In this document: in pieces, positions 405-54,403 of the stretch
Layout of the letters: each line of letters begins with the position of its first letter
How positions within the stretch are numbered: the stretch's first letter is position 1
IMG/VR virus record: IMGVR_UViG_2643221950_000002
Coordinates: 56,138 to 120,137 of that record
Length of the DNA: 64,000 nt
Direction: 5' to 3' (one strand)
Origin: a virus
Lineage: Duplodnaviria; Caudoviricetes
Program-made: the position numbers and the translations under genes
The notes under the pieces: generated by a model
The model's database searches: none
Told to the model about the DNA's origin: nothing
Seen by the model: only the letters and a program-made list of their open reading frames with translations

Positions 405-562
405 TCCCTCCTCCACTCTTATCCTCCTGGACGAATATCAGCCATTAACTCACCTCCCCCTATTAGCCTCCTACTTTAATTGCTTCAATAATCATTTTCA
501 ACCACCTTCTAAATGAAATACTTCTTTTATTACAAATCCAACTTATCAAATTAGATTAAGCA

Positions 563-1192
563 TTACTCTTTTACATTCTCTCCTGACCGCTCATCAAGAC
601 TATCATAATATGCATCTTTAACCATTGCTTCAACATCTGGCTCATCAAATAAGTCATCATTATGCAACTCAAACCTTGCTTCACCGACCATATCTGCCAA
701 GTTAGGAATATGTTTTGAAAAATATTCAATTGATAGCTCATAACAATTTATTAATTGGATGTATACTTTTACTGCTTCTTCCATACTCAAATTAATTTCA
801 TAATGCATAATTTCATTTCTCTTTTTGTTTAGATATGTCATTGCCTCTTTTAATTTTGGGGGCACTTCTATATCGCAAAGAAGTTCAAGTCTCCTAATCG
901 CTTCAGAAAAACCAACAGTTTGTATATTGGGGGAGACTTCAAAAATGCTATTTTTCTTTTGTTTAATCATTTCTTCTTTTGCTTTCATATATGAAGTAAG
1001 GTCTTTGAAGACTAGATATTCGTTCTTACTTTTTAATAAATATTTAAAAAGCAATTCAGCAGCATGATTTATGGATAGTATTGCATCTTTAATTCTATGA
1101 TCGTGTCCCTCAGTCAATTCCATCATTACCTGAATTGAACTATGCGTTGCGTTAAGGGAATCTACAGCATTATCTAATAATGTAAATTTCAT
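563..1192 (-). CDS. HEPN-like protein
   Basis: 209 aa, helical; N-terminal AAELLFK helix and RNEIMH (R-x4-H) motif. Confidence 0.55.
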   Translation of the reverse strand: MKFTLLDNAVDSLNATHSSIQVMMELTEGHDHRIKDAILSINHAAELLFKYLLKSKNEYLVFKDLTSYMKAKEEMIKQKKNSIFEVSPNIQTVGFSEAIRRLELLCDIEVPPKLKEAMTYLNKKRNEIMHYEINLSMEEAVKVYIQLINCYELSIEYFSKHIPNLADMVGEARFELHNDDLFDEPDVEAMVKDAYYDSLDERSGENVKE

Positions 1193-1222
1193 TTGATCTC
1201 GCCTTTCATTAGAAGAATGATT

Positions 1223-1465
1223 TCATTCGAAAAACTTTTGTCTCTCTTTTAATCTTCTATTCTCTTCCTCTAATTCTGCAATGTACTCTTCATACTGTTG
1301 ATTTTGCGCTTGTCTTCCACCAGTTATTTTATTGAAGATAGCATACATGTATACAAACATTACTGGCACGCCCATAATTGGGCCGAATAGGATGAATACC
1401 AGCCAAACTGCAAATCCCCCGCCAAAAATAATCGTATTTAAATTCATCACTACACCCCTTTTCAA
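1223..1465 (-). CDS. Small membrane protein with coiled-coil tail
   Basis: Hydrophobic N-half; real start probably MNLNTII after AAGGGGTG. Confidence 0.65.
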   Translation of the reverse strand: MKRGVVMNLNTIIFGGGFAVWLVFILFGPIMGVPVMFVYMYAIFNKITGGRQAQNQQYEEYIAELEEENRRLKERQKFFE

Positions 1466-1902
1466 TAGGATTATTTTATCATACGGTTAATCAATACTCA
1501 CCATTTTTTCATTTTATTTCCCTTTGCATATGATCTGAATTTCACATTAAGTACTAAATTATGATGTCTTTTATTAACTGCTATTTCAATGAGGGAAGGA
1601 ATCCCACTCTTAGCTCATGTTAAAAACATCATTTTATTTGGCCTGTAATCAATCATAATGCACGTTACAGGATGCAACACGCTTTTAGAATACAGTACCT
1701 TCTTTTATGTACAGTCTCAATAATTTAATTTGTTGTTTAAGTATTCCTCTACGCTGCCATCAAAACCTATATACCCTACTTCAAGTTCATCTAAAATTTG
1801 TTCCTGATCAGCCCAACATTTAAACATATTGTGCATGTTTGGTTTTGAAAGTTCTTTCTTAATTAATTCTCGCATATCATCCACCCCTTACGTATATGTA
1901 AT

Positions 1903-2013
1903 TTATCCAGAATAAATAAATGCACAAAGCAGCATAATGGCCAATAGACTAAATACAGCAATACTGATCAAATCATCCCGCCGTTTTAGTAACCTCTCTT
2001 GGATCGTTTTCAT
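1903..2013 (-). CDS. 36-aa membrane peptide
   Basis: MKTIQERLLKRRDDLISIAVFSLLAIMLLCAFIYSG; ATGA overlap with the upstream ORF. Confidence 0.5.
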   Translation of the reverse strand: MKTIQERLLKRRDDLISIAVFSLLAIMLLCAFIYSG

Positions 2014-2246
2014 TCTTTTCCACTTACAACATCAGTTTCAATTTCATCATATTGATTAAACAAGAACATATACTCAAGATCAAATGCATCTAAAAATTCT
2101 TGTTTTGCGATATGGCCTGTTATAACTGCGCCTTCTAGGGATTGTTTATCAACTTTTGCAAATACACTCCTTGCCGCTCTTTCAGCTACGTCCTCTAAAC
2201 TTTTTCTAATCTCTTCTTTCACTTCAAACATTTTTTTGTAATCCAT
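2010..2246 (-). CDS. Hypothetical phage protein
   Basis: 78-aa ORF with AAGGGG RBS. Confidence 0.65.
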   Translation of the reverse strand: MDYKKMFEVKEEIRKSLEDVAERAARSVFAKVDKQSLEGAVITGHIAKQEFLDAFDLEYMFLFNQYDEIETDVVSGKE

Positions 2247-2468
2247 AATTAACGCCCCTTTTAGTATATGTTATTTATTTGTTTAAAACTCATGTTTTAT
2301 TTAATTTGTAATATACACTTCTCTTGTGTACTACGTACAAAGAAACCTAATTTAATTTTAATCTATTAACAATACACTTAACTTCTAAACTTCGAATACT
2401 TTAACGTATATGTAATTTTTGTGATTATTTAAAAGGAAGTCGTCATAAGACGACTCAGCCTTATAGGT

Positions 2469-3134
2469 TTAAAAATACTTAGATTCTTCTACATCAACCC
2501 ATTCTTTTAAAGCTGGGAGTATCTCTAATATTTGTTCTTTAATTGGTGATAATTCTAAAGAGATTTGGCCACTTACTTCTGTCAGCATCTCATTTAATTC
2601 ATTTAGCTGATCTCTGATGTGTTTAAAGGTTTGCAATTCAGGAACAGAAAAATAATTTGTTATTCTTGAATTAACAAATGTGAATATGCTATCTAATACT
2701 AATTTATTTACAGATTCTAAATTAGAGGAGTAGATAAATGATTCAAACTTCTTTAAAGGTTTCGGTATTTCAACAAAATCAAGTTCTTCATTTGTAAAAC
2801 TTAAGAAGATTTCGCTATCTGTTTGAACAAAAAGTCTATTATCATTATCCATTCTTCTAGAAAAAAATATCGGTTCACCGTGTCCCATTGCTTCAAGAAC
2901 ATTCCCAGGAGCGTTCTTGTCCCTTCTTATGAAACCAATCATAAATCTTTTAAAATTAGGATTATCATTCCACTTTTCTTTGAAATAAGCTTCGAAATTC
3001 TCTATAGGAAAACTTTGCTCTTTACCCAAAACACTTCCAATCTTCATAATAAATCTTTTCATTTTCTCATTCCTTTTCATTTTTATACTAAGACTATAAA
3101 CAAATGTTGATAATATTTCCATTAATTTGCTCAT
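2469..3134 (-). CDS. Hypothetical protein
   Basis: 221-aa ORF followed by the hairpin AGTCGTCATAAGACGACT. Confidence 0.65.
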   Translation of the reverse strand: MSKLMEILSTFVYSLSIKMKRNEKMKRFIMKIGSVLGKEQSFPIENFEAYFKEKWNDNPNFKRFMIGFIRRDKNAPGNVLEAMGHGEPIFFSRRMDNDNRLFVQTDSEIFLSFTNEELDFVEIPKPLKKFESFIYSSNLESVNKLVLDSIFTFVNSRITNYFSVPELQTFKHIRDQLNELNEMLTEVSGQISLELSPIKEQILEILPALKEWVDVEESKYF

Positions 3135-3169
3135 TTCTTATAAAGGATTAAATAAAAGAAACATTTTAT

Positions 3170-3418
3170 TTAACTTTCAATTTTCAATAATTCAATTGCT
3201 CGATCGTATGCAACAACTTGATTTAAATAGATATCAATACTATTATCCATCAGCCCGTCAGCCGAAAATAAATACTTGTCATCTTTCTTTAGCTTAAATT
3301 CAAGATTGTCCAATGTTCTTTTAATAATAATAATCTGTTCTTGCAATCTATTTTTAGCAATCTCTCTTTCTGCTTCAAGCATAACTAAGTTTTTATTTTC
3401 TTTTGTCATATTTTCCAT
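3170..3418 (-). CDS. Hypothetical phage protein
   Basis: 82 aa, AAAGGAG RBS. Confidence 0.7.
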   Translation of the reverse strand: MENMTKENKNLVMLEAEREIAKNRLQEQIIIIKRTLDNLEFKLKKDDKYLFSADGLMDNSIDIYLNQVVAYDRAIELLKIES

Positions 3419-3436
3419 TCTCCTTTCTGTAGAAAA

Positions 3437-3628
3437 TCAACATTTTATATTAATTTTTGCGTGAGGATTGGGTAATTTATTAATATCAATCCATCGACCA
3501 TTTCTTCCTTTCGGATCACTTATATGCGTTAGGTATACTTCTTTATCAGATGATTTAAGGACTACATATGTAAAACTGTTAATCATCACACAGTGCCCTT
3601 TTTCGTATTTAAAATTATTTAAACACAT
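3437..3628 (-). CDS. Hypothetical phage protein
   Basis: 63-aa ORF in a run of co-oriented ORFs. Confidence 0.5.
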   Translation of the reverse strand: MCLNNFKYEKGHCVMINSFTYVVLKSSDKEVYLTHISDPKGRNGRWIDINKLPNPHAKINIKC

Positions 3629-3631
3629 TGG

Positions 3632-3925
3632 TTAAAGTGTTAGACTTAAATCTAATATTCTCTTTTTACGATCATTAAGCTTCTTTATTTCCTCATCTAT
3701 TCTTTTAAACTTCGATTTCATAACCCTTTCAAAATCTCTTTTCTTGTCGTCTCCATCTAGAAGAATTATTTCACGATCACCCTTAGATGTATTGAAATTG
3801 TAAAGACCTCCAACATGTTGATTTTTCATCCATTTTTCATAATCAGATCGATCAACCTCTTCTTTCTCAATTCTTCCATCTTTATAAAGACTTATTTTTA
3901 ACATCACTTCTCCTCTTTCCTGCAT
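3632..3925 (-). CDS. Hypothetical phage protein
   Basis: Likely start MLKISLY after GAGGAG. Confidence 0.65.
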   Translation of the reverse strand: MQERGEVMLKISLYKDGRIEKEEVDRSDYEKWMKNQHVGGLYNFNTSKGDREIILLDGDDKKRDFERVMKSKFKRIDEEIKKLNDRKKRILDLSLTL

Positions 3926-3937
3926 AAAATTAGAATT

Positions 3938-4171
3938 TTATTCGACTATTCCATATGCTTTGTATATTTCTTCTTTCATACTATGCCCTTGCCGCTCTTC
4001 TTCTTCACCAATCTCTTTAAATGTCATTGTGAACTCATCAATAAGTCTAAAATTGATTTCACCGACTCCTTCCTCGTCAATTACATCATACATTTCATTT
4101 ATTGAGTATTTTACCGTTCCTTTTAAACCATCAACATCTGCATCTAAAATTCTTTTAATTACTTGCTCCAT
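3938..4171 (-). CDS. Hypothetical acidic phage protein
   Basis: 77 aa, AAGGGG RBS, directly behind a promoter. Confidence 0.7.
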   Translation of the reverse strand: MEQVIKRILDADVDGLKGTVKYSINEMYDVIDEEGVGEINFRLIDEFTMTFKEIGEEEERQGHSMKEEIYKAYGIVE

Positions 4172-4240
4172 AATTTTTACATCCCCTTTTTTAAAACGCT
4201 AGAATTTTTATCAACCGTTTCCGTTGTATCTTATAACTAT

Positions 4241-4292
4241 ATTATATATGTTATTTGTACTTTAATCAATAAAAAATGTGTGTTATTTGTAC
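4241..4292 (-). promoter_or_regulatory. SigA promoter with tandem AAATAACA operator motifs
   Basis: TTGATT-aaagtacaaataacata-TATAAT with a second CAAATAACAC upstream. Confidence 0.8.
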
Positions 4293-4293
4293 T

Positions 4294-5901
4294 TTAATTT
4301 CCTAGCATTAAAACTTTTGATGTATCTAACATATAATAACCTTTGTTTTTCATTGTCTTGTTATATTCTCTCTCACCTTCGAATTCATTGATAACCGCTC
4401 TTTCCTCTTCGTTCATTTCAGTAAACTCTGTATTACCGTATGATGGTGGCAACCACCCTTTTTTCTGACTTCCGAAAATATTGAACTTTTTTAAAATCTC
4501 ATCATTTTTAAATTCAATATGACATGTCCCTTTTTTGTAAAACGTTAAATAAAAATACTTCAAATCAATTTTTTTCGTTTCTCCATAGTGTTTAGACATT
4601 TTTAGAACTTCATCAATATTAACATCTTCAGTAAGGCCATTGTCTAGGTAGTTAAACACTTTTTCGATATCTTTGAGTTTATCCATAACAGTATAGTAAG
4701 TTGGATCATAATTACCATCCCAAGTACCATAACCATTTAGTGGAATTACAACTTTTTTGTTTATTTTATAAGATTTGTTTGTTTTCCATCCGTTATATAA
4801 GTGAACATTTTTTGATGTTTTATCATAATAGTGTTTATGGCTGAACTCTTCAAACAAATTTAGAATGGTTTCTTCGACTCCTTGAATCATTTCTTTACTC
4901 ATTTGTATTCTTAATGTGTATATGTTGAATAAAGAGAAATCATAATCCTTTAACTCTTCGACATGCTGCAAATATTTTTGCTTTAGATTGCTTGTAAAAA
5001 GACTCATGAATTCAGCATTATTAAACAGTGTATTCCAATACTTTTGCCTTACACTTTTAATAAATTCGTTTTCCATATCTTCTGTATAGTTATTTGCAGA
5101 AGAATCCAATTCTAATTTTAGTATCGGTTTAGAAGTTTCTTTAAAGCTATTTAAGATTAACGGTTTCATGCTATTGTATTCATTTATAAGTTTCAAGCCT
5201 GCTTTAAGCTCATAGTTAAATTGCTCAACAATTCCCCTTATGTAATCAGAATCAATTAATTGAGTTGATTTATAATCATTTTTAAGTATGTGGCTTTCAT
5301 CCTTTTTCAATTCATTTAAAAGAACACTGTTATATTCACCGTTATCAATTTTTATATAAACTAAAGCTGTCTCTACACTTGTCTTTCTTTCAGAACTAAC
5401 AAAGGCATCTTTTATAAATTCGACATCTGCATCAAGCTCGGTCAACTTTCTAACGAGATATTTCCTGTCATTAGAATAAGGGTTATTTAATGTTTCAGCG
5501 TTTAGTAAACAGACTATCTGACCCGTTCTATGTTGTGATTCAATTAAATTAATGGCCTTTAATAAATGCTTTTCCCCATTGCTGAACGGCGGATTCATAA
5601 ATATAAGATCATATTTCTTGTATGTATTAAAAGTTAGAAAATCATCTGAAATAACTCTGAAATCTTTACCTTTTAACAAGTGGCGCAAGTTCTCATCATG
5701 CTCAATAGCATCGATGTCATACTTTGATTCTCTTCTATATATCTTGGTGTAATCAAATTGCTTATGAATTGCTTCCACCAAATTGCCTGAACCCGCTGAA
5801 GGCTCTAAAACTGATTTAATATACTTCCAATCTACCTTTCTATTCATTTTGTTGATTAAACTTGCTGGAGTTGGGTAAAAATCTAGATTCTCTTTAAACA
5901 T
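4294..5901 (-). CDS. SAM-dependent amino (probably N6-adenine) DNA methyltransferase, DUF4942-type C-terminus
   Basis: FYPTP, motif I LEPSAGSG, motif IV NPPF; 535 aa; no cognate endonuclease seen. Confidence 0.85.
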   Translation of the reverse strand: MFKENLDFYPTPASLINKMNRKVDWKYIKSVLEPSAGSGNLVEAIHKQFDYTKIYRRESKYDIDAIEHDENLRHLLKGKDFRVISDDFLTFNTYKKYDLIFMNPPFSNGEKHLLKAINLIESQHRTGQIVCLLNAETLNNPYSNDRKYLVRKLTELDADVEFIKDAFVSSERKTSVETALVYIKIDNGEYNSVLLNELKKDESHILKNDYKSTQLIDSDYIRGIVEQFNYELKAGLKLINEYNSMKPLILNSFKETSKPILKLELDSSANNYTEDMENEFIKSVRQKYWNTLFNNAEFMSLFTSNLKQKYLQHVEELKDYDFSLFNIYTLRIQMSKEMIQGVEETILNLFEEFSHKHYYDKTSKNVHLYNGWKTNKSYKINKKVVIPLNGYGTWDGNYDPTYYTVMDKLKDIEKVFNYLDNGLTEDVNIDEVLKMSKHYGETKKIDLKYFYLTFYKKGTCHIEFKNDEILKKFNIFGSQKKGWLPPSYGNTEFTEMNEEERAVINEFEGEREYNKTMKNKGYYMLDTSKVLMLGN

Positions 5902-5936
5902 ATTTTCTCCTTTTTTAAAGGCACCTTTACAGAACC

Positions 5937-6407
5937 TTATTTAATTTGATTTAAATGGGATACCCCTTCTTCAATACTCATTCTTAAAACAATTCTCACC
6001 ATCTCCTCCTGAAAACCCGTTTCATCTTTTTTAGATGAGAGATTAATAAGATTTTTCATGTCATTTAAATTGAGGTTAGGCAAAATATCTTTGGTGAAGT
6101 GTTCTTTTGCTTTTTCGATATTTTCTTTTTCATTTTTTGCTTCTCTGATTGAGTTTAGACTTACAACATTTGTTTTTTGCACTTCTTCTTGAACATCTTC
6201 GATTTCTTGTTTCGTTAATTCTGATTCGATTGGTTGGGGTGTAGGATCAGTAATAAAGGCTTCGACTAGTTCAGCTTCACCATTTTTGATTAGTTCCAAT
6301 GCTTCTGATTTTTTTATTGGAAAACTTCTCATTTGAGCCCAGCTGTATCTGTAGTATCTGTTACCTTTTTGTTTAATTAACATCATCTTTACCCTCTCCA
6401 GTCTCAC
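5937..6407 (-). CDS. Hypothetical phage protein
   Basis: 156-aa ORF; start probably at MMLIKQ. Confidence 0.7.
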   Translation of the reverse strand: MRLERVKMMLIKQKGNRYYRYSWAQMRSFPIKKSEALELIKNGEAELVEAFITDPTPQPIESELTKQEIEDVQEEVQKTNVVSLNSIREAKNEKENIEKAKEHFTKDILPNLNLNDMKNLINLSSKKDETGFQEEMVRIVLRMSIEEGVSHLNQIK

Positions 6408-6472
6408 TTTTTATTTTTGCAACCCCTGGCCATTATTGACCAGGACGCTCACAGCCTAATGCCTGTTTATAC

Positions 6473-6667
6473 TCACTGTGACGAGTTTAGCGTATCAACA
6501 TGCTGGATATATCCTTTAGCAATCCATGAGCTGTGAGGAGACCACTCAGCGTCACCCTCTCTCATATAAGCTGTATGTACAGGTGTTCCAGCTTTTCTAT
6601 CAGGATGCTTTTCTTCTGTTAATTTAGTCCATACCCAGTTGTTCGGCTTTACTTTTTTCATATCCAA
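6473..6667 (-). CDS. Hypothetical phage protein
   Basis: 64 aa, AAGGGAGAG RBS. Confidence 0.65.
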   Translation of the reverse strand: MDMKKVKPNNWVWTKLTEEKHPDRKAGTPVHTAYMREGDAEWSPHSSWIAKGYIQHVDTLNSSQ

Positions 6668-6710
6668 TCTCTCCCTTTAAAATATTCATTTTATTGAATT
6701 CTATAACTTC

Positions 6711-6908
6711 TTAATAGATGTAATATAAATCACCATTGTTGTCACTAATTGCGAATCGCTTCAATTGAGTATAACTACTTTTTGGAGTGCCTTTTTTTGT
6801 ATATTTTGATTTAAAAAATTCAGGATGTTTCCCTATTTCTTGTTGTGCTTCTTTTAGTGTTGAAAATTCTCCGATTTTCACAAAGTTGTAAGTAGCGAAA
6901 TATCTCAT
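6711..6908 (-). CDS. Hypothetical phage protein
   Basis: 65 aa, TAATG-coupled to the upstream ORF. Confidence 0.65.
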   Translation of the reverse strand: MRYFATYNFVKIGEFSTLKEAQQEIGKHPEFFKSKYTKKGTPKSSYTQLKRFAISDNNGDLYYIY

Positions 6909-7165
6909 TAGTTCTTTACCTCCTCATATGATCCAATTTCATATTTTTTGTTTCCAAAACTCACAAAAACTTGTCCATTTTCTAATTTCATTAATTTGCG
7001 AAGTGTGGTCATTCTTATACCGTTATTAATAGCAGCGAAATATAAACGTCTTCCTCCAGTTTCTTTTAATTTGAGTTTATCGTATTTATATCCTTCACAA
7101 ACTCCACTATGATTCAAAAATGAGGTATGAATTGTTACATTTATCGCCATTATAATTCTCTCCAT
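6908..7165 (-). CDS. Hypothetical phage protein
   Basis: 85-aa ORF behind the promoter at 7211. Confidence 0.65.
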   Translation of the reverse strand: MERIIMAINVTIHTSFLNHSGVCEGYKYDKLKLKETGGRRLYFAAINNGIRMTTLRKLMKLENGQVFVSFGNKKYEIGSYEEVKN

Positions 7166-7210
7166 TCTTTATTTGTTATTTGACTGAATTTTGTTCTTTT
7201 CTATATCCTT

Positions 7211-7260
7211 ATTATATATGTTATTTGTATTTTAATCAATGATTTTTGTGTGTTATTTTT
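7211..7260 (-). promoter_or_regulatory. SigA promoter with tandem AAATAACA operator motifs
   Basis: TTGATT-aaaatacaaataacata-TATAAT; near-identical to 4241-4292. Confidence 0.8.
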
Positions 7261-7474
7261 AATTTTATTGAGTATTTTATTACGTCCTATGAGGGGTTTG
7301 GGGTGGTGTAGGACGAAAGGGCAATTCAACTTGTTGAAGTGACCAAAGTCAGCACCCCAAGGTCTTATTTTCAGTCTATATATTATATATAATTTTAACT
7401 TCTTTTCTTTTACGAGAGATTGCTCAAAACCGTTGTGGCTGTTGAGTTTTTAAAATGATTTATTGCTTTTGTTT

Positions 7475-8707
7475 TCATAGGTCATTTTCTAACCACTCGA
7501 TTAATAGACGTCTCATTCTAAATGATGGGATGTATATATTGATTGATTTGTTATTCCTTATTGCTGATCTCCATATCCATTGAATCATCTCTGATAAAGC
7601 GTAGATGTCTTGATCTATATTTATGTTATTCTGCTTAAAGAAATCATTAATAGCTGGATTAACAAATCTGTTGATTGAATAAACTAATGATTTCTTATGA
7701 CTGTATTCATTAGTAGCTTTAATATTACACGCTAAAAATCCCTTAGTGTATCCTTTGCCGCTCAACTTCCCTTTATGAGATTTAAAGGTTGTCCATAGAT
7801 TCTCGTTTGATTTAGACTTAATGATATTTTGGTAATAGTTTAAGATATTGTTTTTTAAACGCTTATGTAACACCGATCTACTTTCAAACCAATTTTTAGA
7901 CAATGCGTAATAGTCGTCACCTACCTTGTTCAAATCTCCTTCATATATGTTTATCTTATTCTTCAAAGCAGCCTTAACCTTTTGGTCTAGGGATTCATTA
8001 TGTTTAATTAATTTATAATTTTTATTTTCTTTTATGACTGATAACAATTCATATTCAATACAGTGTAAGTCAAAATAATACTTTTGAATCTGAGCATTAA
8101 ACAAATATGTTAATACGTACACCTCGTTAAACTTAGCAAAAACATCGCTAGGGAATTCCCAGAACAAAACAGATTCATTGTGATAGATTAGATTATCACT
8201 TTTGGCCAGCTTCTTTAATGTCTGAAACTCCCCTTTGTATTCCCTATTCAATTTTTCTTCATTCTCAGAGTTCCACAATATCTTTCCGTTGTTGTTAATG
8301 ATCCAGTTGTTTTTAAATAACATATCTAAATCATCTTTAGAAATATTAAATTTCTTAATCACTTCCATTGCTTCATCAAGTACCAAAGTATAATTGCCTG
8401 AGTAAATTAAATCTTTGGTGGTTTGATCAGACATACTAAACAATGCGTGAGTCGCAACTATATCCTTGTTTTCTGAAAGCAGCTTATGAAAAGAATCAAT
8501 CTTATATAATACTTCTCCCTTTTCTGAGTGAACTTTTGGTTCATGAAATTTTCTGTTGCTACATGACTTCTTAATTCTTGATACTTCATCCAGGTATGGA
8601 GTGATAAAAATAAAATGCTTATCTAAAGATGATTCATTCATGTGATCAATCATTAGACTTGTTTTACCGCTGCCCATAATCGAATCAATAATTTTAACTT
8701 TTGACAT
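7475..8707 (-). CDS. yonV: YonV-like SF2 helicase/ATPase
   Basis: 410 aa; Walker A (DSIMGSGKT), Walker B (VLDE), C-terminal QWIWRSAIR; syntenic. Confidence 0.75.
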   Translation of the reverse strand: MSKVKIIDSIMGSGKTSLMIDHMNESSLDKHFIFITPYLDEVSRIKKSCSNRKFHEPKVHSEKGEVLYKIDSFHKLLSENKDIVATHALFSMSDQTTKDLIYSGNYTLVLDEAMEVIKKFNISKDDLDMLFKNNWIINNNGKILWNSENEEKLNREYKGEFQTLKKLAKSDNLIYHNESVLFWEFPSDVFAKFNEVYVLTYLFNAQIQKYYFDLHCIEYELLSVIKENKNYKLIKHNESLDQKVKAALKNKINIYEGDLNKVGDDYYALSKNWFESRSVLHKRLKNNILNYYQNIIKSKSNENLWTTFKSHKGKLSGKGYTKGFLACNIKATNEYSHKKSLVYSINRFVNPAINDFFKQNNINIDQDIYALSEMIQWIWRSAIRNNKSINIYIPSFRMRRLLIEWLENDL

Positions 8708-8755
8708 TCATTCTCCCCTATTCAAAATTATATGTATGGCGAGCTGAGCTACCGC

Positions 8756-8941
8756 TCACCGTTTAAAACCTTTAAATACAAAGTAAGACAACCAAGTGAT
8801 TATAAGGATCAATGTAGAAATAGCGTATGTCCAAATAATAAATGATTGTGTGTTGCTGCTGAATAAGTCTTTAATAAGCCAGAATACAACGAATGTAATA
8901 CCGAATGTAATTAGTGAGTACCATAATTGTTTATGCTGCAT
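8756..8941 (-). CDS. Two-TM small protein in the yoyJ position
   Basis: 61 aa with two hydrophobic helices, directly downstream of yonT; weak RBS. Confidence 0.55.
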   Translation of the reverse strand: MQHKQLWYSLITFGITFVVFWLIKDLFSSNTQSFIIWTYAISTLILIITWLSYFVFKGFKR

Positions 8942-8980
8942 ATATGTTTACAAAGTGCTGCAAGGTGCTATAATATAGAT

Positions 8981-9079
8981 GACAAAGGGAGAAGTATCTC
9001 CCAATGTCTAATGATGTTTAACGGCGTATACGTTTGCGTGTCCTTGACCTAGGTCGCTTATGTGTACGCTTTTTCTTTT
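8981..9079 (+). ncRNA. SR6-like antisense antitoxin RNA
   Basis: TTTACA (8947) and TGcTATAAT (8966-8974) promoter. The ~100 nt transcript overlaps the yonT 3' end and ends in a GCGTATACG...TGTGTACGC stem followed by TTTTTCTTTT. Confidence 0.7.
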
Positions 9080-12208: not shown

Positions 12209-14740
12209 TTGGGGAGAAAAACAAATGATTTAAGCAAACAAGTGTTTATTTATAGTCTTGATACTTCGAGTTTTTATAATGATCGAGAAAATTTGTTACA
12301 TAGAAAGATTTTAAAGTCTTATAGATATAGAGATTTGCTTAAAACACATAATGGGGACACAAAAAAAAATAAGAAATACATAAAAAACAGAATCGCTAAA
12401 TTAAAACAGGAGTTAAATCAAGCCTTCAGTGAACATGAGAGTGTACGGATGCTTAGAGCCGACACATTAACAGACAATAAAAAGATCGCTATGTTTGATT
12501 CAGTTATGACTCGAACTCTAGGTATAAAAGAAAACAATTTCTCTGATGATGTAATTGTGGTTCAGGTATACCATTTCCAGGTGTTCAAGAGTATTCTTGA
12601 TGAAGGTTTTGTACATAATAATGAACTTTATGTTTACTTTACGAGTTCAGCTGGGCAAATACGAACGAAAAAAGCTTGTTTTATTAAGAAGTCTACATAC
12701 GATAAATTTGAAAATGCTTTAACATGTGGACTTAGTCTTGATGATATCAATTCTAATGGTGGGATGAACATCAATAAATGGAATGCTTACCTTGCTTTAT
12801 CGAATAGTGCCAGCAGCCATTGGAATATTGATATAAGTAAAACTGTTGTTGTTGATGATTTAGAAACCGATGTAATGAGTGAAGTTGATTATATCGACCG
12901 CAATACATATGAAATTACTAGAAAGAAAATGAATATTCCTATTGAGCATACTGATGGTTGTGGAATTATATCACCTAAGCTCAGTAGTAAAAGCTTTATG
13001 GTCAGACTGCCGTGGGTTAAAGGATTGTTAGTGCCCTTCGACTTTCATCGTTTTGCAGAAATACATAATAAAACACAAATTACAGATATATACGGTAAGG
13101 TATGGGATATTAAGAAAGATGATATCCAGATTATTTTCACTAAATCGCAATTTAAGATGTGGAAATATTATAAGTCCTGGAACGAATATCAAGAAAAGTT
13201 TGTTCTGTACGGTTGTCTGGGGGCTAAATTAAATGAAGAAGACCCTTCAGTTGAGGGGAAACTTACATATCAAATGCTTCAAACCCTTACTGATATTACT
13301 CATGATGAGCTCAAGTCTATTAGTAACAAAACTGTTGAGGAAATAAAGGCAATTGGTAATGATAAAGATATTATGTTAAAAATTATGGGGGCTACTGAGA
13401 ATCGAAAATTCAGATCGCCTTTGCAAAATGCATTACTCCTCTATCCTCAACTATTGAATGATGATCATGTCAAAGAAACCATTAAGAATAAGAAAAAGAG
13501 TCTTGTAAAAGACGCAAAATCAGGAAAGCTGCAGATTGAAAATTCTAAGTACACCTATCTTTGCCCCGATTTATATGCTTTTTGTGAAAAACTGTTTTTA
13601 GGAATTGAAAATCCGAATGGTTTATTGGATGGCAGCAATGTTTACTGTTCGCTTTATGATGAAGGAGAAATTGATGTACTTCGCTCCCCTCATCTTTATC
13701 GTGAGCATGGTATTAGAAAGAATGTTAGAAGCAAATTGCTAGATGAATGGTTTATCACCAAAGGAGTTTATACAAGTGTTCATGATCCAATCTCAAAATT
13801 GCTCCAGTTTGACAATGACGGGGATAAAGCGCTGATAATATCAGATCCTTTCTTTGTTAATATCGCAAAGAAACATGTCGCTGACATCGTTCCCCTTTAT
13901 TATGAGATGGGTGTTGCAAACAAACAGATGATTAACAGTGAAAATCTCTATGAATCTCTGACCAACGCCTATGCGGTTAATATTGGTGAATACAGTAACA
14001 ACATAACGAAGATTTGGAACAGTTCTTCAGTTAATATTGATGTTATCAAATGGCTATGCGCTGAAAATAACTTTGCTATCGACTATGCAAAAACGTTATT
14101 CATGCCTACAAGACCAGACAATGTTGACAAACAAATTAAAAATTACATAAAAGATAAAGTGCCTTTCTTCTTTGTCCATGCTAAAGATAAGGATATCTCT
14201 TCTGTACAGCCTATTAATGAGAGTACTGTAAATAAACTAGAAGAAATCATTCCAACTGATAGGATTAATTTCAAAGCTGTTGCTGGACACTTCGATTACA
14301 ACTTCTTATTAAAAAACAAACGTATTAAAGAAGATGAAGAATTGGTTAATGAATACATAAAGCTTGATCGAAATAAAAAATGGCTTACTAATAATGAAGA
14401 AACTAAGCCGAATCAGAAGTTATACGTGTATAAGCTCATTAGAGAAAAGCTACTTGAAATAAATAGTGATGAACAATATGTTGTGGATGTTCTTGTGAAA
14501 CATCTGTACAAAAAGAAAAGCAGATATAAAGCAACGTTGTGGGAATGCTTTGGTGAAACCATACTCAATAATCTGAAAAGGAATTTGAAAACTTTCAAAG
14601 GTTGCGTAAAGTGCGGACAAATGTATAAGCCTACCTCGAACAACTCTAGTTTTTGTACAAAGTGTTCAGTCACAATTGAAAAAGAAAAACATAAAAAAAG
14701 ACAGAAATCATATGTATCTAGGACAAAAATGACGGTTTAG
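12209..14740 (+). CDS. yonO: YonO single-subunit DNA-dependent RNA polymerase
   Basis: 843 aa; HTDGCG, RSPH and catalytic DNDGD motifs; C-terminal CxxC...CxxC. Confidence 0.93.
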
Positions 14741-14751
14741 GAAGTGCCTTG

Positions 14752-14834
14752 AGCCTTAGAGCCACAAGGGATACAGCGTTTTTGTGCAAAAATAAAGCTA
14801 TTAAAAAGCGGCTTCAGCCTTAGAGCCACAAGGG
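14752..14834 (+). repeat. 19-bp direct repeat AGCCTTAGAGCCACAAGGG (2 copies)
   Basis: Exact copies at 14752-14770 and 14816-14834. Confidence 0.9.
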
Positions 14835-14963
14835 TTCAGACCGCTTTTGGAGATAATCGTCATAAGGGAGGTAAAAAGCAAATATCCAAATTAAAAAGGT
14901 TAGTATATCTCCCCTCCCCATTTTTAAAAATACAAATTACACATATAATCAGGAGGAATAAGA

Positions 14964-15239: not shown

Positions 15240-15289
15240 TTTTATCTAAATAAATAACGTATATAGACCATCTTGGTTTTTAAGTTGAA

Positions 15290-38208: not shown

Positions 38209-38219
38209 TTTTGGGCGAC

Positions 38220-38468: not shown

Positions 38469-38516
38469 TTTGTATCACCCCTCCTCTAATTATAACATCA
38501 CTTGCAATACTTTTGC

Positions 38517-39205: not shown

Positions 39206-39890
39206 AAGAGCTTTTGATTATAAAGGGAATAATGTAAGAACGTTTATGAGAGATGAAGAAACTTGGTTTGTAGCAAGGGATGTATGTAACATATTAGAAA
39301 TTGGCAATCCGAGTCAAGCGCTGAGCCGTCTTGATGATGATGAAAAGAATACTATCATTTTAAATGAGGGTATTGGGAATCCAAATAAAACAATCGTTAA
39401 TGAACCAGGTCTCTACACATTAATCTTGAGCAGTCGCAAACCTGAAGCGAAACAATTCAAACGTTGGGTGACTCATGACGTACTTCCTGTAATTCGCAAA
39501 AGCGGGATGTATATCTCAGAGGATGCAACCAGAGAGCAGAAACTATTTAACTACGATTTGTTAGAAGAGACTTTTAGAAATTGTGGAATTGAAAATCTGC
39601 ATGAACTTTATAAGGAATGTGTGGAATATTACAAAGAAAATAAGATTCGATTAGATTATAAAAGAAGCTCTAAGCATAGACGAAATGATAAGAAAAAATC
39701 ACTTTCTGATTCTCGAATTGAAATAATGAAAAAGATTGAAAACGTACTTCAAGAACGAGAATTGAATTATAAGCAATCTCTCAATTTTGCCTTTGTATCA
39801 GTTGTATCTGAATTATTAAAGATTATTGCATTGGACATTAAGTCAATAAAACACAACAAAACTAGAGGAAAGCTGGCTCAAGCGAGATGA
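39192..39890 (+). CDS. Bro-N domain antirepressor-like protein
   Basis: WFVARDVCNILE...LDDDEK...VNEPGLYTLILSSRKPEAKQFKRWVTHDVLPVIRKSG. Confidence 0.92.
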   Translation: MNQFERAFDYKGNNVRTFMRDEETWFVARDVCNILEIGNPSQALSRLDDDEKNTIILNEGIGNPNKTIVNEPGLYTLILSSRKPEAKQFKRWVTHDVLPVIRKSGMYISEDATREQKLFNYDLLEETFRNCGIENLHELYKECVEYYKENKIRLDYKRSSKHRRNDKKKSLSDSRIEIMKKIENVLQERELNYKQSLNFAFVSVVSELLKIIALDIKSIKHNKTRGKLAQAR

Positions 39891-40099
39891 CCAAGTTTGT
39901 TAATCCCATCATATTAGATGTAGTTGCAATGGTTGATCAAACTTCTTCATCTCAAGAGCTTGCTGATATTTCTACTGAGCGTCTCTTAGCAAAATTTAAC
40001 GATATACTTGAAATTGTTCTGGTGAATAGACATGGAGAGACTCTCAAACTAGAGGCATATGAGTTGAACTATGAAGTGAACGAATCCGAAGAAGTATAA
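39887..40099 (+). CDS. Hypothetical protein
   Basis: 70 aa, ATGA-coupled; terminator at 40107-40154. Confidence 0.65.
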   Translation: MTKFVNPIILDVVAMVDQTSSSQELADISTERLLAKFNDILEIVLVNRHGETLKLEAYELNYEVNESEEV

Positions 40100-51356: not shown

Positions 51357-51373
51357 GAAAGGAGTGATACTGA

Positions 51374-52192
51374 ATGGATTTCCCAAAACTTTATAATGAC
51401 CCTGTCTTGTACCACAAAAGAAAAAATACATATGACGATCCATATATGAGCTATGATGAAACCCACTCTATTCTAAACGGAAGTATATTTTTAACCGAAA
51501 ACCCTAATCGTGAAAATAGAGTTGTTGTAATTGGCGGCAATATTGAGTGGAAAGAAATTGAAGATGGTGAATTAGAAGATGACTGTTATCGTGTTGATTA
51601 CATGATGGGAGTTGTCTTTTTTAATGCCTCTAACGACGGAAAAGAATTGCAAGTTAAATACGTTGGCGAAGGTGCTCACTTCTTCCCTGCAGCACGTATT
51701 TGGATTAAACGTTCAGGTAATACAGTCGTTGAGACACTTCAAGGATTAATTGATGAAGCAGAAGATTGCATTATTCGCATGAACGAGAGAATTTTAGAGT
51801 GTGAACGAGTCATCAAACGCTGTATAGAAATAACTACTTGGTGCCGTCAAATCACTTCACAATATGAACGTGTCGTTGAAGAAACTAAGAAGAAATACTA
51901 CCCATCTGTCAATAACTACTCTGATTTAATTGTTGAATACCCAAACCCGCAGGTCGGTTGGACTGTCGCTGTTAAGAACATCAAAACAGTTTATCGTTGG
52001 GATGGATTCGAATGGGTTGATATAGGTGTTTCAGAAGTCTATGAAGGATTCAACATTCTTTTGAGTGCTTATGAGCCCCACAGTTTAAATTATATTTGGT
52101 ATCAAGATGAGAGTTTAAGTCCTACCAAGAAAAGAGTTGTCATTTCTAATGCAGCTCCAGAAACAGGGCAGATATGGTATAAGCCTGATTGA
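51374..52192 (+). CDS. yomF: YomF-like tail tip protein
   Basis: 272 aa; synteny. Confidence 0.7.
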   Translation: MDFPKLYNDPVLYHKRKNTYDDPYMSYDETHSILNGSIFLTENPNRENRVVVIGGNIEWKEIEDGELEDDCYRVDYMMGVVFFNASNDGKELQVKYVGEGAHFFPAARIWIKRSGNTVVETLQGLIDEAEDCIIRMNERILECERVIKRCIEITTWCRQITSQYERVVEETKKKYYPSVNNYSDLIVEYPNPQVGWTVAVKNIKTVYRWDGFEWVDIGVSEVYEGFNILLSAYEPHSLNYIWYQDESLSPTKKRVVISNAAPETGQIWYKPD

Positions 52193-52216
52193 TACACATA
52201 AAGGAGGAATTAATTA

Positions 52217-54334
52217 ATGGGTTTTAGAATGCCACATCCTGTTACTGGCGAATATGTACCAATGGCCATTGAATTGCTGAAATCTGATGGTGTTGGATAT
52301 ACTGCACCTGAAATTAAAGCCAAATTTGATGGAATTCTAGATTCAGTAACAAACCTATCTACAACAACTTCTGATAAGCTGAAAGAAATGGCTGATTTAA
52401 TTGGAGACATTGGCGAGCTTGCAGGAGATACTGGAAGTATTGTAGATACAATTAAAAAAGAACTAAACCAACGTGGGATAAACGTTAAATGGCTTGGTGC
52501 AGTTGGAGATGGCGAAACAGATGACACATCAGCTTTCCTTGCTGCAGAAGCTCTATCTAACAATGAGTATCCGATCTTCGTTCCACCAGGTACTTATTTA
52601 GCTGATCAAGCCGACTTGAAAGGCAATTACTTCGGTAACGGCGCATTCCTTATTGTCAAAGAAAGAGAAGCTTTTAATGCTACGGCTCCCCCAAGTCAAA
52701 AAAGAGATCAACGTCTGTTCCCTCTTACCTCTACCCCTCTTCCTATCCTCAATGAATTCTATGGAAAAAATTCAGGATACAAAATTACTTTAGACGCTTA
52801 CGGCAACACATCTACAGGGGAAGATTCTTTAAGAAACCTTACTTCTGGTAAGCAAAATACTGCTGTTGGCTTCTTATCTCAAATGAATAACCAAACACAA
52901 TACTCAAACGTTTCAATTGGTGGAAGTTCATTAGCCCAAGGAACTTATTACAGCCGTACTACAGCTATCGGAAACAACTCCTTAAAATGGGCAGGTATTA
53001 AAGATCCCATAGTTTCTAGACATGAGTTGTGGCTTAATGAGAAAGATTTGAATAATATTTGGAATATTTCAGGGACGGATTCTTACATTCTTAAGCAGAT
53101 GAACCCAGAAGTTGAGAAGCTGATTCAGCCTACAGGATATCCTGCTCCACAAGGTGCTGTTATTGTTAACGAGGGCGGAGGATTTCCTGCAGCAACTTCT
53201 TCATCTCAAGTGCTAGGGAATACTGGAATTGGTCGTAACGCCTTGCTTCAATTGGTTAGAGGTATCCATAATACCGCAATTGGATATCAAGCTCTGGCAA
53301 GATCTTATACTACCGAAAGATGTACTGCTATTGGTGCGTTTGCATTGGCCAACAACCTCGCTGGCAAAGAAAATATCGGTATTGGCAGAAATGCGATGAA
53401 ATATAACCAAACTGGTCAAAAGAACATTGTTATCGGTAATAACGCTATGGGTTATGACGTATTTGGTACCAGAAATATTTTCATTGGACATCAAGCTGGC
53501 CAAAGATCAAACGGAAATAAGAATGCCTCCCATACTTTAAATACCGTTATTGGAACATATGCTCATCAAAATAAAACAGACGGCGAAGCAAACGTCTCTA
53601 TCGGTGCTAGAACACTTCTAAACGGTGCAAATGGCAGTCGAAACGTTGTTGTAGGAACGGAAGCTGGCATTAACTATACTGGCAATAACTCTATTATCAT
53701 CGGGAATAAAGCGATGCCTAGCAGTAACCAAGATCGATTATTGTGGATTGATTATGGCAATGACGGCAATGCCTCTCCTTTCATCTATGGTGATATGGGA
53801 AATAACATTATGAACGTTCGTGCAAACTTGCGACCAGACACTGATGCTTCTCAATCGTTAGGTGCGCCTTCCAGACGATGGGCAAACATCTATGCTTCAA
53901 ATGGAACGATCAACACTTCTGATGAAAGATACAAACAAAACATTACTGATATTCCTGATGAATGGCTGGATGCTTGGTCTGAAGTTAATTTCTGTAGATT
54001 TAAATTTAAAGATGCAGTAATTGAAAAAGGAAGTTCTGCAAGATGGCATATTGGTGTCATTGCTCAGAAAATTGATGAAGTGTTTAAAAAGCATGGCTTG
54101 GATGCAACTGAAATTGGATTGCTTTGTTATGACAAGTGGGATTCTGAATTTGTAAACAAGGTAGACCCTAAAACAGGTGAATTCACTGGAGGAACAATCG
54201 AAGTTGTAAAAGGCGGGTACATGTGGGGCATTCGTGCTGATGAGTGTCAATTCCTAGAAATGGCTCTAATGAGACGTGAAACCGAAAAGATGCAGCAAGA
54301 GATGCGTGAACTTAAGGCTGCATTATTGAAATAA
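52217..54334 (+). CDS. Tail spike with beta-helical repeats and C-terminal S74 intramolecular chaperone (yomE position)
   Basis: GAVGDGETDDT; NTAIG-type 14-residue repeats; TSDERYK...HIGVIAQ. Confidence 0.85.
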   Translation: MGFRMPHPVTGEYVPMAIELLKSDGVGYTAPEIKAKFDGILDSVTNLSTTTSDKLKEMADLIGDIGELAGDTGSIVDTIKKELNQRGINVKWLGAVGDGETDDTSAFLAAEALSNNEYPIFVPPGTYLADQADLKGNYFGNGAFLIVKEREAFNATAPPSQKRDQRLFPLTSTPLPILNEFYGKNSGYKITLDAYGNTSTGEDSLRNLTSGKQNTAVGFLSQMNNQTQYSNVSIGGSSLAQGTYYSRTTAIGNNSLKWAGIKDPIVSRHELWLNEKDLNNIWNISGTDSYILKQMNPEVEKLIQPTGYPAPQGAVIVNEGGGFPAATSSSQVLGNTGIGRNALLQLVRGIHNTAIGYQALARSYTTERCTAIGAFALANNLAGKENIGIGRNAMKYNQTGQKNIVIGNNAMGYDVFGTRNIFIGHQAGQRSNGNKNASHTLNTVIGTYAHQNKTDGEANVSIGARTLLNGANGSRNVVVGTEAGINYTGNNSIIIGNKAMPSSNQDRLLWIDYGNDGNASPFIYGDMGNNIMNVRANLRPDTDASQSLGAPSRRWANIYASNGTINTSDERYKQNITDIPDEWLDAWSEVNFCRFKFKDAVIEKGSSARWHIGVIAQKIDEVFKKHGLDATEIGLLCYDKWDSEFVNKVDPKTGEFTGGTIEVVKGGYMWGIRADECQFLEMALMRRETEKMQQEMRELKAALLK

Positions 54335-54403
54335 AACTATGATTTTATAGGAATATATTCAATACATAACAGAGAAAGACAGAGCATGTGTGAGAACGAG
54401 AGA

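Follow-up and report, generated by a model that had tools for sequence, protein, structure and literature searches.

Genomic context and compared genomes

The stretch of DNA analysed here, hereafter the window, has a length of 64,000 nucleotides (nt) and corresponds to bases 56138-120137 of a 120,137-bp provirus record of IMG/VR (IMGVR_UViG_2643221950_000002); the whole record is referred to as G000. The element under study is the short palindrome TAAAA-N6-TTTTA, which is found repeatedly at the gene junctions of this DNA. Judging from its sequence similarities, the source of the window is an SPbeta-like phage. An open reading frame (ORF) of 843 amino acids (12209-14740) and its surroundings match yonO and yonN of SPBc2, phi3T, Goe and SPbetaL phages with about 69% nucleotide identity (distant blastn), and the closest genome match of the YonO-like protein (93%) is located on a Bacillus pumilus contig. 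A megablast of positions 30000-40000 against phages gave zero matches. The genes lie on the minus strand up to about position 12000, which is the end of a long "early" arm; beyond this point they lie mostly on the plus strand and are late or structural genes. The comparison included SPBc2 (SPbeta itself), phi3T (PP526178), the B. pumilus prophage G001, the IMG/VR relatives L004 and L005, and contigs from four other public sequencing runs (X2, X3, X6 and X7) that were aligned on positions 1-9000 of the window.

Copy number and spacer specificity of the palindrome

The exact motif TAAAA-N6-TTTTA is present 13 times in the window, with copies beginning at 1621, 2284, 3153, 3925, 6678, 15229, 17855, 25185, 25536, 28277, 32365, 54332 and 61558, and 29 times in the genome of 120,137 bp. 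A previous inspection of the letters of the window (the sequence-only reading) had listed nine exact copies, all of which are real, and had missed four (15229, 25536, 28277 and 61558). Dinucleotide shuffles of the window (n = 100) contain 0.85 copies on average and 4 at most, none reaching 13. Markov simulations of orders 3 and 5 (40 each) give means of 1.10 and 1.23 with a maximum of 5. At the scale of the genome, the simulated means are 2.2-2.3 and the maximum is 6, to be compared with the 29 copies observed.

The sequence-only reading had named the absence of an N6 enrichment over other spacings as the result that would speak against it. When all spacers from N0 to N20 are scanned, 13 copies are found at N6 in the window against 0-2 at any other length, and 29 in the genome against 0-5. 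The opposite order, TTTTA-Nk-TAAAA, occurs in 0-4 copies. An unbiased scan of all 5-base palindromic arms combined with spacers of 0 to 12 places TAAAA-N6 far ahead at the top of the list, both in G000 and in SPBc2. None of the 15 symmetric arm variants that were tried is enriched in seven Bacillus-type genomes, and CAAAA-N6-TTTTG is present in 2 copies for an expected mean of 0.6. The copies with one mismatch at N6 are not raised as a class either (35 in the genome versus 27-58 at N3-N10), and the same holds in all seven genomes. The recognition is therefore sharp, all-or-none on the ten positions of the arms. This result qualifies a further claim of the sequence-only reading: its four near-copies (514, 3432, 34556 and 34580) exist as written, the third overlapping the stop codon of a YomM-like gene, but the first three, with one mismatch, belong to a class that is not enriched. 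Joints in the contigs of other strains nevertheless fall at 514 and 3432.

The AT-box of the competence regulator ComK has the spacing A4-N5-T4. This type of spacing was rejected for the present motif, AAAA-N5-TTTT being not raised (23 copies versus 45 for AAAA-N6-TTTT). That the palindrome is a by-product of the A+T-rich composition of intergenic regions and of helical A-tract phasing, with no specific function, has in our opinion a probability close to nil. The motif is composed of A and T only, and AAAA-N6-TTTT without the outer T and A is somewhat raised (45 copies versus 10-32 at other spacers). However, 29 of these 45 copies carry the outer T and A, shuffles and Markov chains of orders 3 and 5 produce only 1-2 copies of the full motif, and the other spacers give 0-5 copies, of which one in ten is intergenic. 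Moreover, the one-mismatch copies are not raised and the host genome, as described below, is not enriched.

Anatomy of the site and position at gene junctions

A gene-oriented logo was built from 52 junction sites of G000 and SPBc2. It displays a weak symmetric conservation of the flanks: T at -6 in 35 sites, Y at -5 in 47, A at -1 in 44, W at +16 in 52, R at +20 in 51 and A at +21 in 46. The extended site can be written approximately as T-Y-T-r-r-A-TAAAA-N6-TTTTA-W-n-b-A-R-A. It forms an imperfect palindrome of 28 bp with the organisation 11-6-11, where each arm contains five strict and about six weaker symmetric positions around an invariant 6-bp spacer. The geometry of a tyrosine-recombinase core site, proposed by the sequence-only reading, is consistent with this structure.

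In G000, at least half of the motif lies outside coding sequence for 22 of the 29 sites (noncoding DNA represents 11.2% of the genome), versus 1 of 10 for the spacers N3-N10 other than N6. The placement at gene junctions noticed in the window, often overlapping a stop codon and preceding a Shine-Dalgarno (SD) sequence, extends to seven genomes, where 165 of 192 sites are so located. Co-directional genes flank 139 of the sites. Of these, 35 begin 1-5 nt ahead of the end of the upstream ORF, in which case the TAA of the motif is usually the stop codon, and 69 end 15-34 nt ahead of the next start codon with the SD sequence in between. The common layout is consequently the succession of stop codon, site, SD sequence and start, with a distance to the next start codon of 10-218 nt (5th-95th percentile). 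Some copies, such as those upstream of aimR and yorE in SPBc2, have an intrinsic terminator on one side and the following promoter on the other. Sites occur throughout the genome, in the two gene arms and within the late structural operon too, with most of them in the early arm. No -35/-10 pair was seen by eye within the 16-28 bp element in 63 oriented sites, a dedicated promoter scan not having been run. In the record of SPBc2, the only annotation over the copies 2629 and 116415 is a generic stem_loop feature.

The frequent layout of stop codon, motif, SD sequence and start could also suggest an intercistronic element acting at the RNA level, as a hairpin, a processing site or an enhancer of translation initiation. 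In folds of 32 nt, the arms are paired in the minimum-free-energy structure at 19 of 29 sites. But the hairpin formed by the arms alone is unstable (+0.7 to +1.8 kcal/mol), the mean minimum free energy of the 32-nt folds is only -2.1 kcal/mol, and some copies stand between a terminator and the next promoter. An RNA element also gives no reason for the dyad symmetry (the arms differ as RNA), for a loop fixed at 6 nt or for conserved loop sequences. We consider this explanation very improbable, and with it the RNA-processing site that the sequence-only reading had mentioned as an option.

Distribution among phages and hosts

The seven SPbeta-like genomes each contain 21-34 sites at N6 and 0-5 at N3-N10. 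In SPBc2 the count is 34 at N6 and 0-4 with any other spacer; five more SPbeta-like proviruses, complete or nearly so, have 21-30 copies versus 0-3 for a control pattern with reversed arms. In contrast, a host genome of 3.9 Mb from the B. pumilus group is not enriched, with 53 sites versus 51 for the reversed control; four prophage contigs, together about 116 kb long, account for at least 24 of the 53. Enrichment is also absent from a second host genome (35 versus 43 for the control). On average, one site is present every 4 kb or so in the phage, and roughly every 130 kb in the host. The hypothesis of a site for a host factor was rejected on the absence of enrichment in host chromosomes. From the dyad symmetry, the fixed spacer, the sharp arms and the restriction to phages, the element is probably a double-stranded DNA site for a dimer encoded by the phage.

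Among more distant loci that bear YonO or YonV, the strict motif fades and a relaxed half-site, T[A/G]AAA, appears. TGAAA appears as a second arm in the Psychrobacillus phage Perkons, in L058/G013 and in L129. The first 50 kb of Perkons contain 8 TAAAA and 6 TGAAA palindromes with N6. In L058/G013, a metagenomic IMG/VR fragment of 51 kb, 50 sites T[A/G]AAA-N6-TTT[T/C]A are detected in about 43 kb versus 1 for the control; there is nearly one site per small gene, followed within a few bases by an SD sequence, and the half-sites TAAAA and TGAAA are freely mixed within single copies. The relaxed motif is also enriched in a Paenibacillus prophage locus (10 versus 0.67). One complete related phage of similar size shows no excess of the relaxed motif over the control (7 versus 10).

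Conservation of the centre of each copy

The 192 sites represent 98 distinct 16-mers, the centre differing from copy to copy without strong consensus. The sequence-only reading had described the spacer as constant in length and variable in sequence; this is correct between copies, but each copy keeps its own centre. Among 77 positional pairs within two closer groups of genomes (homologous flanks identical at 86-91%), the centre is identical in 64. In these pairs, the identity per base falls from 0.96 in the centre to 0.77-0.79 in the 6 nt on either side and to 0.61-0.68 farther out. In the alignments, the 16-mer with 1-3 bases on each side appears as an island of identity amid flanks that cannot be aligned. 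The conservation reaches beyond the groups: 18 16-mers are common to groups that are only about 70% identical in conserved genes, and nine sites of G000 have the same 16-mer as a site of SPBc2, where below one would be estimated by chance from 29 x 34 pairs and 4096 possible centres; a collinear order on the early and late arms is kept by seven of them. The positional mapping across groups by blast alignments is limited to 17 pairs, the flanks being too diverged. A conserved centre proper to each copy would be the outcome expected if overlap regions must match, or if frequent conversion starts at the site.

Judged on these alignments, the copy-specific centre is the feature that most separates a crossover joint from a plain operator. 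The latter has to be weighed with care: the palindrome could be an operator or architectural site of a global DNA-binding protein of the phage, which would silence, insulate or time the downstream genes, the mosaic borders described below being a by-product. We regard this as a serious alternative, albeit an unlikely one. A 5-N6-5 dyad such as the one present here is also the geometry of many operators bound by helix-turn-helix (HTH) dimers. The copies stand 5' of SD sequences or promoters, and in SPBc2 some lie beside the promoter regions of aimR, yorE and yosX, which are bound by the repressor MrpR. On the other side, a spacer without contacts should drift or converge, whereas the centres are conserved per copy (0.96) without strong consensus. 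The distance to the start codon or promoter is as variable as indicated above (10-218 nt), and copies are also found within the single late operon transcribed by YonO (PMC5467207 for the description of the operon).

Homology borders and gene exchange

Between G000 and G001, six homology ends (5318, 36760, 38606, 45348, 46954 and 110458) are all situated at most 15 nt from a site, and two of them fall exactly at the edge of a site. Between SPBc2 and phi3T, 10 of 72 ends of high-scoring segment pairs (blast alignments) are at a site; nine of them were aligned, and in these the border is inside the site or within about 6 nt of its edge. In four cases the downstream gene is accompanied by the entire site; in two, the upstream gene is accompanied by the left arm, either alone or together with the centre. 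A hybrid copy was identified in phi3T at 79388, where the upstream flank of the SPBc2 site 87599 is joined to the centre of the site 88400 and the yoqH-yoqI interval is absent. A second such hybrid copy links G008 and G007. On the evidence of these two hybrid sequences, crossovers between different copies can happen at the border of arm and centre. They would fit a single-strand exchange or microhomology and not a classical spacer-dependent exchange.

The contigs of the four sequencing runs display 14 skip joints on positions 1-9000, that is 28 ends, of which 10 are at most 5 nt from the edge of a site. The positions so close to an edge represent about 1.7% of this region. Eight of the ten ends are at exact sites (1620, 1639, 2299, 3173, 3920 twice, 6692 and 6694) and the other two are at one-mismatch copies, hereafter quasi-sites (531 and 3448).

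The fate of the neighbouring genes was determined for 92 pairs of sites with an identical 16-mer within groups. With flanks of 200 nt, both sides are homologous in 24 pairs, only the downstream side in 27, only the upstream side in 18 and neither in 23. A blastp of the neighbouring ORFs for 61 pairs gives the same picture (14, 12, 11 and 24, in the same order); the number of pairs where neither neighbour is homologous is an upper bound, the gene calls being home-made. Identical copies persist through the replacement of the downstream gene as often as of the upstream gene (18 and 27 pairs), which speaks against an operator.

When all junctions are considered, those with the motif are richer in breakpoints (odds ratios of 2.2-6.5, p = 0.0006-0.13 in ten ordered pairs of genomes). 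They are also longer, with a median gap of 91 nt versus 26 nt. After matching for length (co-directional genes, gaps of 30-300 nt), breakpoints are present in 32 of 94 motif junctions (34%) and in 57 of 299 others (19%), giving a pooled odds ratio of 2.2 (p = 0.0025); for gaps of 30-120 nt, the proportions are 30% and 18% (p = 0.04). An enrichment of merely about two-fold is a point in favour of an operator.

The borders may also be read in another manner, the palindrome being the target of a nicking or cutting enzyme of the phage or of another initiator, in recombination-dependent replication or in the processing of branched DNA before packaging. Breaks made there would start homologous recombination and gene conversion, which would homogenise the site with its close flanks and place the mosaic borders. 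The identity around the sites decays with distance (0.96, 0.78, 0.67 and 0.61) like a conversion gradient, the recognition is sharp and limited to exact copies, the borders are at either edge of the site or inside it, and YomM, the recombinase homologue described below, is encoded among the late genes. But no nuclease has been assigned to this role, and such a target does not need the strong preference for junctions. We hold it for improbable.

Individual sites of the window

In the early arm, the site 1621-1636 is located between two small minus-strand ORFs (1717-1884 and 1223-1465). The contig X3 keeps only 1620-1639 between skipped or replaced parts (joints 1260 to 1620 and 1639 to 1703), and the homology with L004 begins at 1610. 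The site 2284-2299 lies between the minus-strand ORFs 2469-3134 and 2010-2246; in X2, the piece 2172-2299 stops with the final base of the site and 1038 other letters come next, and the 16-mer is also present in G004 and G005. The site 3153-3168 is 1 nt past the stop codon of ORF 3170-3418 (minus strand) and 18 nt before the start of ORF 2469-3134 (minus strand). The homology with L005 begins at 3154, and X6 has a joint from 3173 to 3420. The quasi-site 3432-3447 is upstream of the SD sequence of ORF 3170-3418 (minus strand). There the homology with L005 ends at 3448, and both X2 and X3 replace the part from 3448 to 3920 by 380 other letters.

For the site 3925-3940, the minus-strand TAA is the stop codon of ORF 3938-4171 (minus strand). 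Joints end at 3920 in X2, X3 and X7. L005 lacks both 3448-3924 and 3941-6419, and between the two missing segments the centre of the site is retained as a single copy with one mismatch. The same 16-mer is also present in SPBc2, G004 and G008, at a different map position. The site 6678-6693, between the minus-strand ORFs 6711-6908 and 6473-6667, is next to joints from 6692 to 7188 in X3 and from 6694 to 7193 in X2. Finally, the quasi-site 514-529 is adjacent to a joint from 531 to 1233 in X3 and to a loose end at 529 in X7; the support for this quasi-site is weak, coming from a single place and for a class that is not enriched.

Downstream of the early arm, the site 15229-15244 overlaps the 3' end of an HU-like gene (14964-15239, plus strand), and its positional copy in G005 differs by one substitution in the centre. 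This HU-like gene (91 amino acids) follows the gene of the YonO-like single-chain RNA polymerase (843 amino acids), the two genes spanning 12209-15239. The site 17855-17870 is 26 nt upstream of the ATG at 17897; its 16-mer is identical at the syntenic place in SPBc2, G005, G007 and G008, and the flanks differ. In the late region, the site 25185-25200 comes directly after the stop codon of ORF 24045-25184 and 18 nt before the ATG at 25219. The copy 25536-25551 is inside ORF 25219-25683; its 16-mer was found in no other genome examined, and it may be a chance copy. The copy 28277-28292 is inside ORF 27733-28395 and the copy 61558-61573 begins 20 nt inside ORF 61538-62389, both with a 16-mer also present in G004 and G005. 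At the site 32365-32380, the TAA is the stop codon of a small ORF (32218-32367) and an SD sequence follows; the homology with G005 ends at window position 32381 (G000 88518). At the stop codon of the YomM-like gene, the one-mismatch copy 34556-34571 and the CAAAA-N6-TTTTG copy 34580-34595 are both present and may be chance copies.

At the site 54332-54347, the TAA is the stop codon of the tail-spike gene (52217-54334), and the endolysin gene starts at 54386. Ahead of this site, homology gaps of about 2.1-2.3 kb are observed between G000 and G004, between G004 and G005, and between G000 and G001 (from 108160 to 110458 in G000). The homology resumes at window position 54321 with G001 (G000 110458) and at 54331 with G004 (G000 110468). 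Between G000 and G005, there is no homology break at this site.

Candidate proteins

The YomM-like tyrosine-recombinase homologue is encoded at 33557-34558 on the plus strand (the longest ORF begins at 33503, and the homologues start at about 33557) and is a candidate binder only. The ORF has only sub-threshold matches to the N-terminal SAM-like domain and a weak match to Cre (E = 0.009). The family is large and its conservation unusually high, with 671 matches at E <= 1e-5, the best 120 of the 671 having 61-99% identity. The homologues are named tyrosine recombinases and originate from Bacillus, Priestia, Paenibacillus, Brevibacillus, Virgibacillus and the phage Perkons. The residues R198, E201, K229, K235, H299, K302, H327 and Y337 are invariant in 24 aligned members, a pattern that in our own reading corresponds to the recombinase set with a lysine (K302) at the position of the second catalytic arginine. 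An R-R pair located five residues upstream of the histidine is also invariant in these 24 sequences, which come from several genera. The AlphaFold model of YomM (mean predicted local distance difference test score of 76.6) matches XerA, Cre, Tn1549 Int, XerH, IntI and the lambda Int core over about 300-330 columns. According to this model, YomM is a simple two-domain homologue of the Cre/Xer-like recombinases, the kind that binds palindromic core sites.

Only one ORF of the genome is above the cut-off of the Pfam family Phage_integrase (PF00589). It is located at G000 52779-53861 on the minus strand (L151 1357-2439) and is considered YopP-like because it stands beside ORFs with the sizes of yopQ and yopR. 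We read H-x-x-K instead of H-x-x-R in this protein as well, and its comparison with the PDB sequences gave no match at E <= 0.01. In SPbeta, YopP is described with a XerC-type domain and YopQ with a ParB-type domain, both encoded in the lysogeny operon (PMC8612738). Integration of SPbeta is attributed to the serine recombinase SprA (PMC10516654, PMC8612738). A third recombinase-fold protein, MrpR (YopR), is reported as a pure repressor that binds the 15-bp element SPBRE at ten promoters and has no recombination activity (PMC10516654).

These proteins bear on the possibility of an operator. Its reader could be the ParB-like YopQ, a dimeric HTH protein of the Xre type, or a recombinase-like protein without catalytic activity that behaves like MrpR. 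A recombinase-fold repressor already exists in SPbeta according to PMC10516654, and YopP and YopQ are placed in the lysogeny operon by PMC8612738. MrpR itself does not account for the sites: the chromatin affinity purification sequencing (ChAP-seq) reported in PMC10516654 gives ten peaks, all at SPBRE promoters, and not about 34 places.

Three distant records where the relaxed motif is enriched (39 versus 12, 13 versus 2 and 26 versus 5) each have a PF00589 ORF of 329-345 amino acids, one of which is detectably YomM-like (35% identity). A complete record without enrichment has only a YopP-like ORF of 303 amino acids and no YomM-like match. The co-occurrence of YomM and motif is weak (n = 4, some of the records being fragments). 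The YomM family is tentatively favoured over YopP as the protein of the site, on thin evidence and with a probability well below even. The sequence-only reading had named YomM as a candidate enzyme; YomM is a two-domain Cre/Xer-like homologue, but its tie to the motif is a hint from four records alone.

A proposed crossover joint at module borders

We read the palindrome as a protein-recognised dyad site at the borders of modules, which would act as a fixed crossover joint between related phages; in our judgement, this reading has about an even chance of being right. A dimeric protein encoded by the SPbeta-like phages would recognise the dyad on double-stranded DNA. Each copy would be a fixed joint, its centre and its place in the order unchanged when genes on one side or on both are replaced. 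Relatives residing in the same cell, such as a prophage and an infecting phage, would exchange genes by crossing over at or in the site. The exchange could be a site-specific reaction of a Cre/Xer-like recombinase of the phage, with matching centres required, or a short-homology recombination stimulated by a protein. We infer here the binding of a protein, the crossover in the site, the role of the centre as an address and the identity of the protein.

A more specific form is an addressed exchange of cassettes, where about 30 core sites of the Cre/Xer type would have common arms and individually conserved centres, and a recombinase of the highly conserved YomM family, with its H-x-x-K variant of the active site, would swap modules between relatives in the same cell only at matching centres. 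The matching of centres would avoid deletions within a genome. This specific form appears unlikely to us.

Several observations weigh against a crossover joint. More than 80% of the homology breakpoints are away from the motif and most replacements have no site at either end; per pair of genomes, only 5-10 of 38-85 breakpoints are at 12 bp or less from a site. Mosaic borders do not require the motif, nor are they dominated by it. The expectation of the sequence-only reading that gene-content breakpoints would coincide with the motif is consequently only half borne out: many are within a few bases of it, but the enrichment is about two-fold when junctions are matched for length, and the great majority are elsewhere. 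Recurrent borders of the window have no motif (7211-7216, 6487, 6667, 2012/2032 and 4271). The pairs of the length-matched test are non-independent and only one of five reaches p < 0.05 singly, the gene calls that underlie the junction statistics are crude (they come from our own ORF and SD caller), and several joint pieces of the contigs measure only 20-29 nt, a size about which the alignment method warns. The enrichment of breakpoints could follow merely from a conserved island that offers short homology. Hybrid sites are limited to two in eight genomes. In the laboratory phi3T-SPbeta hybrid PP526179, the two parents have identical sequence all along the tracts where the crossovers fall (3.2 kb and at least 13 kb), so that these crossovers give no information on the sites. 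Concerning the proteins, catalysis by YomM and YopP is uncertain, given the lysine read at the position of the second arginine, and by analogy the precedent of MrpR, a recombinase-fold protein that is a pure repressor, counts in the same direction.

The long-standing question behind these data is whether the mosaicism of phages results from illegitimate recombination followed by selection or from exchange at dedicated linkers. In a model family (SPbeta, phi3T and their relatives in B. subtilis and B. pumilus), one sharp site stands at about 30 gene borders, and its copies survive while their neighbours are replaced, including the tail-spike gene beside 54332. If the copies are true crossover joints, mosaicism would be partly programmed, which is directly testable in a tractable host, and the sites with their enzyme could serve as multiplexed orthogonal recombination tools. 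If the exchange is addressed by the centres, the site would be a molecular form of the "linker" of the modular theory and a natural counterpart of recombinase-mediated cassette exchange. If the palindrome is an operator instead, it would reveal an unknown global regulator in a phage whose lysis-lysogeny circuit is intensively studied.

Comparison with known systems

The core sites of tyrosine recombinases have inverted arms around a short spacer (11-6-11 in Xer/dif, 13-8-13 in Cre/loxP, and FLP/FRT). Their spacers must match, and heterospecific lox or FRT sites are used for cassette exchange. By analogy, the phage element would function most like such sites when dispersed around exchangeable modules. 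The likeness concerns the inverted arms flanking a 6-bp centre (about 28 bp in total), the centre that differs between copies and is conserved per copy, as matching overlaps would select, and the presence in the phage of two-domain Cre/Xer-like homologues. Unlike these core sites, of which a genome has one or two, the palindrome is scattered in about 30 copies and has only five strict positions per arm; its candidate enzymes have a lysine at the second catalytic arginine, and two hybrid copies join different centres, which classical spacer-dependent exchange should not allow.

In integrons, the attC site is recognised as a folded single strand; it is a long imperfect palindrome that has extrahelical bases and paired core sites. 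The platform consists of intI, attI and the promoter Pc followed by one array of co-oriented cassettes. The sequence-only reading had proposed an integron-like shuffling system. Genes or short runs of genes are indeed bounded by imperfect palindromes that often overlap the stop codon, and the hybrid crossovers are at the border of the centre. But the site is far shorter than attC, with a strict 5-N6-5 structure and an unstable hairpin; the copies are dispersed over the arms and the late operon, and most replacements are not bounded by a site. The proposal of an integron-like system is not retained on these grounds, a search for attI/Pc and for IntI insertion not being part of the analysis.

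The pdif (dif) modules of Acinetobacter plasmids comprise multiple short Xer-type sites in accessory regions, with site-flanked modules common to several replicons (Mindlin et al. 2019, PMC6449649). Among dispersed core sites, they are the closest case. The phage sites resemble what is described there in being concentrated in accessory regions and in flanking modules shared between replicons (PMC6449649). The differences are that pdif resembles the chromosomal dif and is used by the host XerC/XerD through two different half-sites, whereas both arms of the phage site are the same half-site and therefore imply a homodimer. In addition, the host chromosome is not enriched here (the dif sequence itself was not compared), the element belongs to a phage, and copies are also present in the structural operon.

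The closest phage analogue is the PeSL (promoter-early stem-loop) cassette of T4-type phages. Each PeSL associates a strong sigma-70-type promoter with a terminator stem-loop, and recombination takes place between these repeats (Arbiol et al. 2010, PMC2839356). As described for them, the phage palindromes are short intergenic repeats in hyperplastic regions of small non-essential genes, where they bound insertions, deletions and replacements (PMC2839356). Unlike PeSL, the motif measures 16-28 bp, shows no sigma-A-type promoter on inspection and no stable hairpin, and has its own centre in each copy. By the defining features tested, the site is not a member of the pdif, PeSL or integron families. 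We found no published description of the motif in a search that included an SPbeta comparative-genomics preprint and had Lazarevic et al. 1999 and the supplements of papers outside its scope.

Within the same phage family, SPBRE is also a repeated intergenic element, and it is bound by a protein with the tyrosine-recombinase fold (PMC10516654). It differs from the palindrome, being a 15-bp element at about ten promoters, whereas the 34 copies of SPBc2 are mostly elsewhere. An identity of the two elements was rejected, the k-mers common to the ten MrpR-bound upstream regions being an unrelated sequence. A promoter of YonO was rejected as well: transcription of the late operon by YonO begins at a single site, upstream of yonK, as reported in PMC5467207, versus about 30 copies of the motif that are mostly in the early arm. 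A second enriched palindrome, ATACA-N7-TGTAT, was detected in SPBc2 (6 copies versus 0.25) and in L008 (4 versus 0). It probably corresponds to the SPBRE/MrpR operator region picked out by the k-mer comparison.

Neighbouring features

The three-gene segment 3941-6419, absent from L005, is present in X2, X3 and X6. It contains an accessory gene of 535 amino acids (4294-5901, minus strand) whose PHROG matches are of the DNA-methyltransferase type. Its left border in the alignment is a G+C-rich inverted repeat (6386-6420), which resembles a terminator on the minus strand after ORF 6473-6667 (minus strand); no palindrome is present at this border. At 7211-7216, the contigs X2, X3 and X7 stop matching or have loose ends, in a gap of 300 nt upstream of a yonV-like gene (7475-8707, minus strand). 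In SPbeta and phi3T, a near-identical late region (99.9% over 13 kb) starts about 45 nt before the site downstream of yomM (SPBc2 39886, phi3T 28589-28640); to the left of it, the two phages are unrelated.

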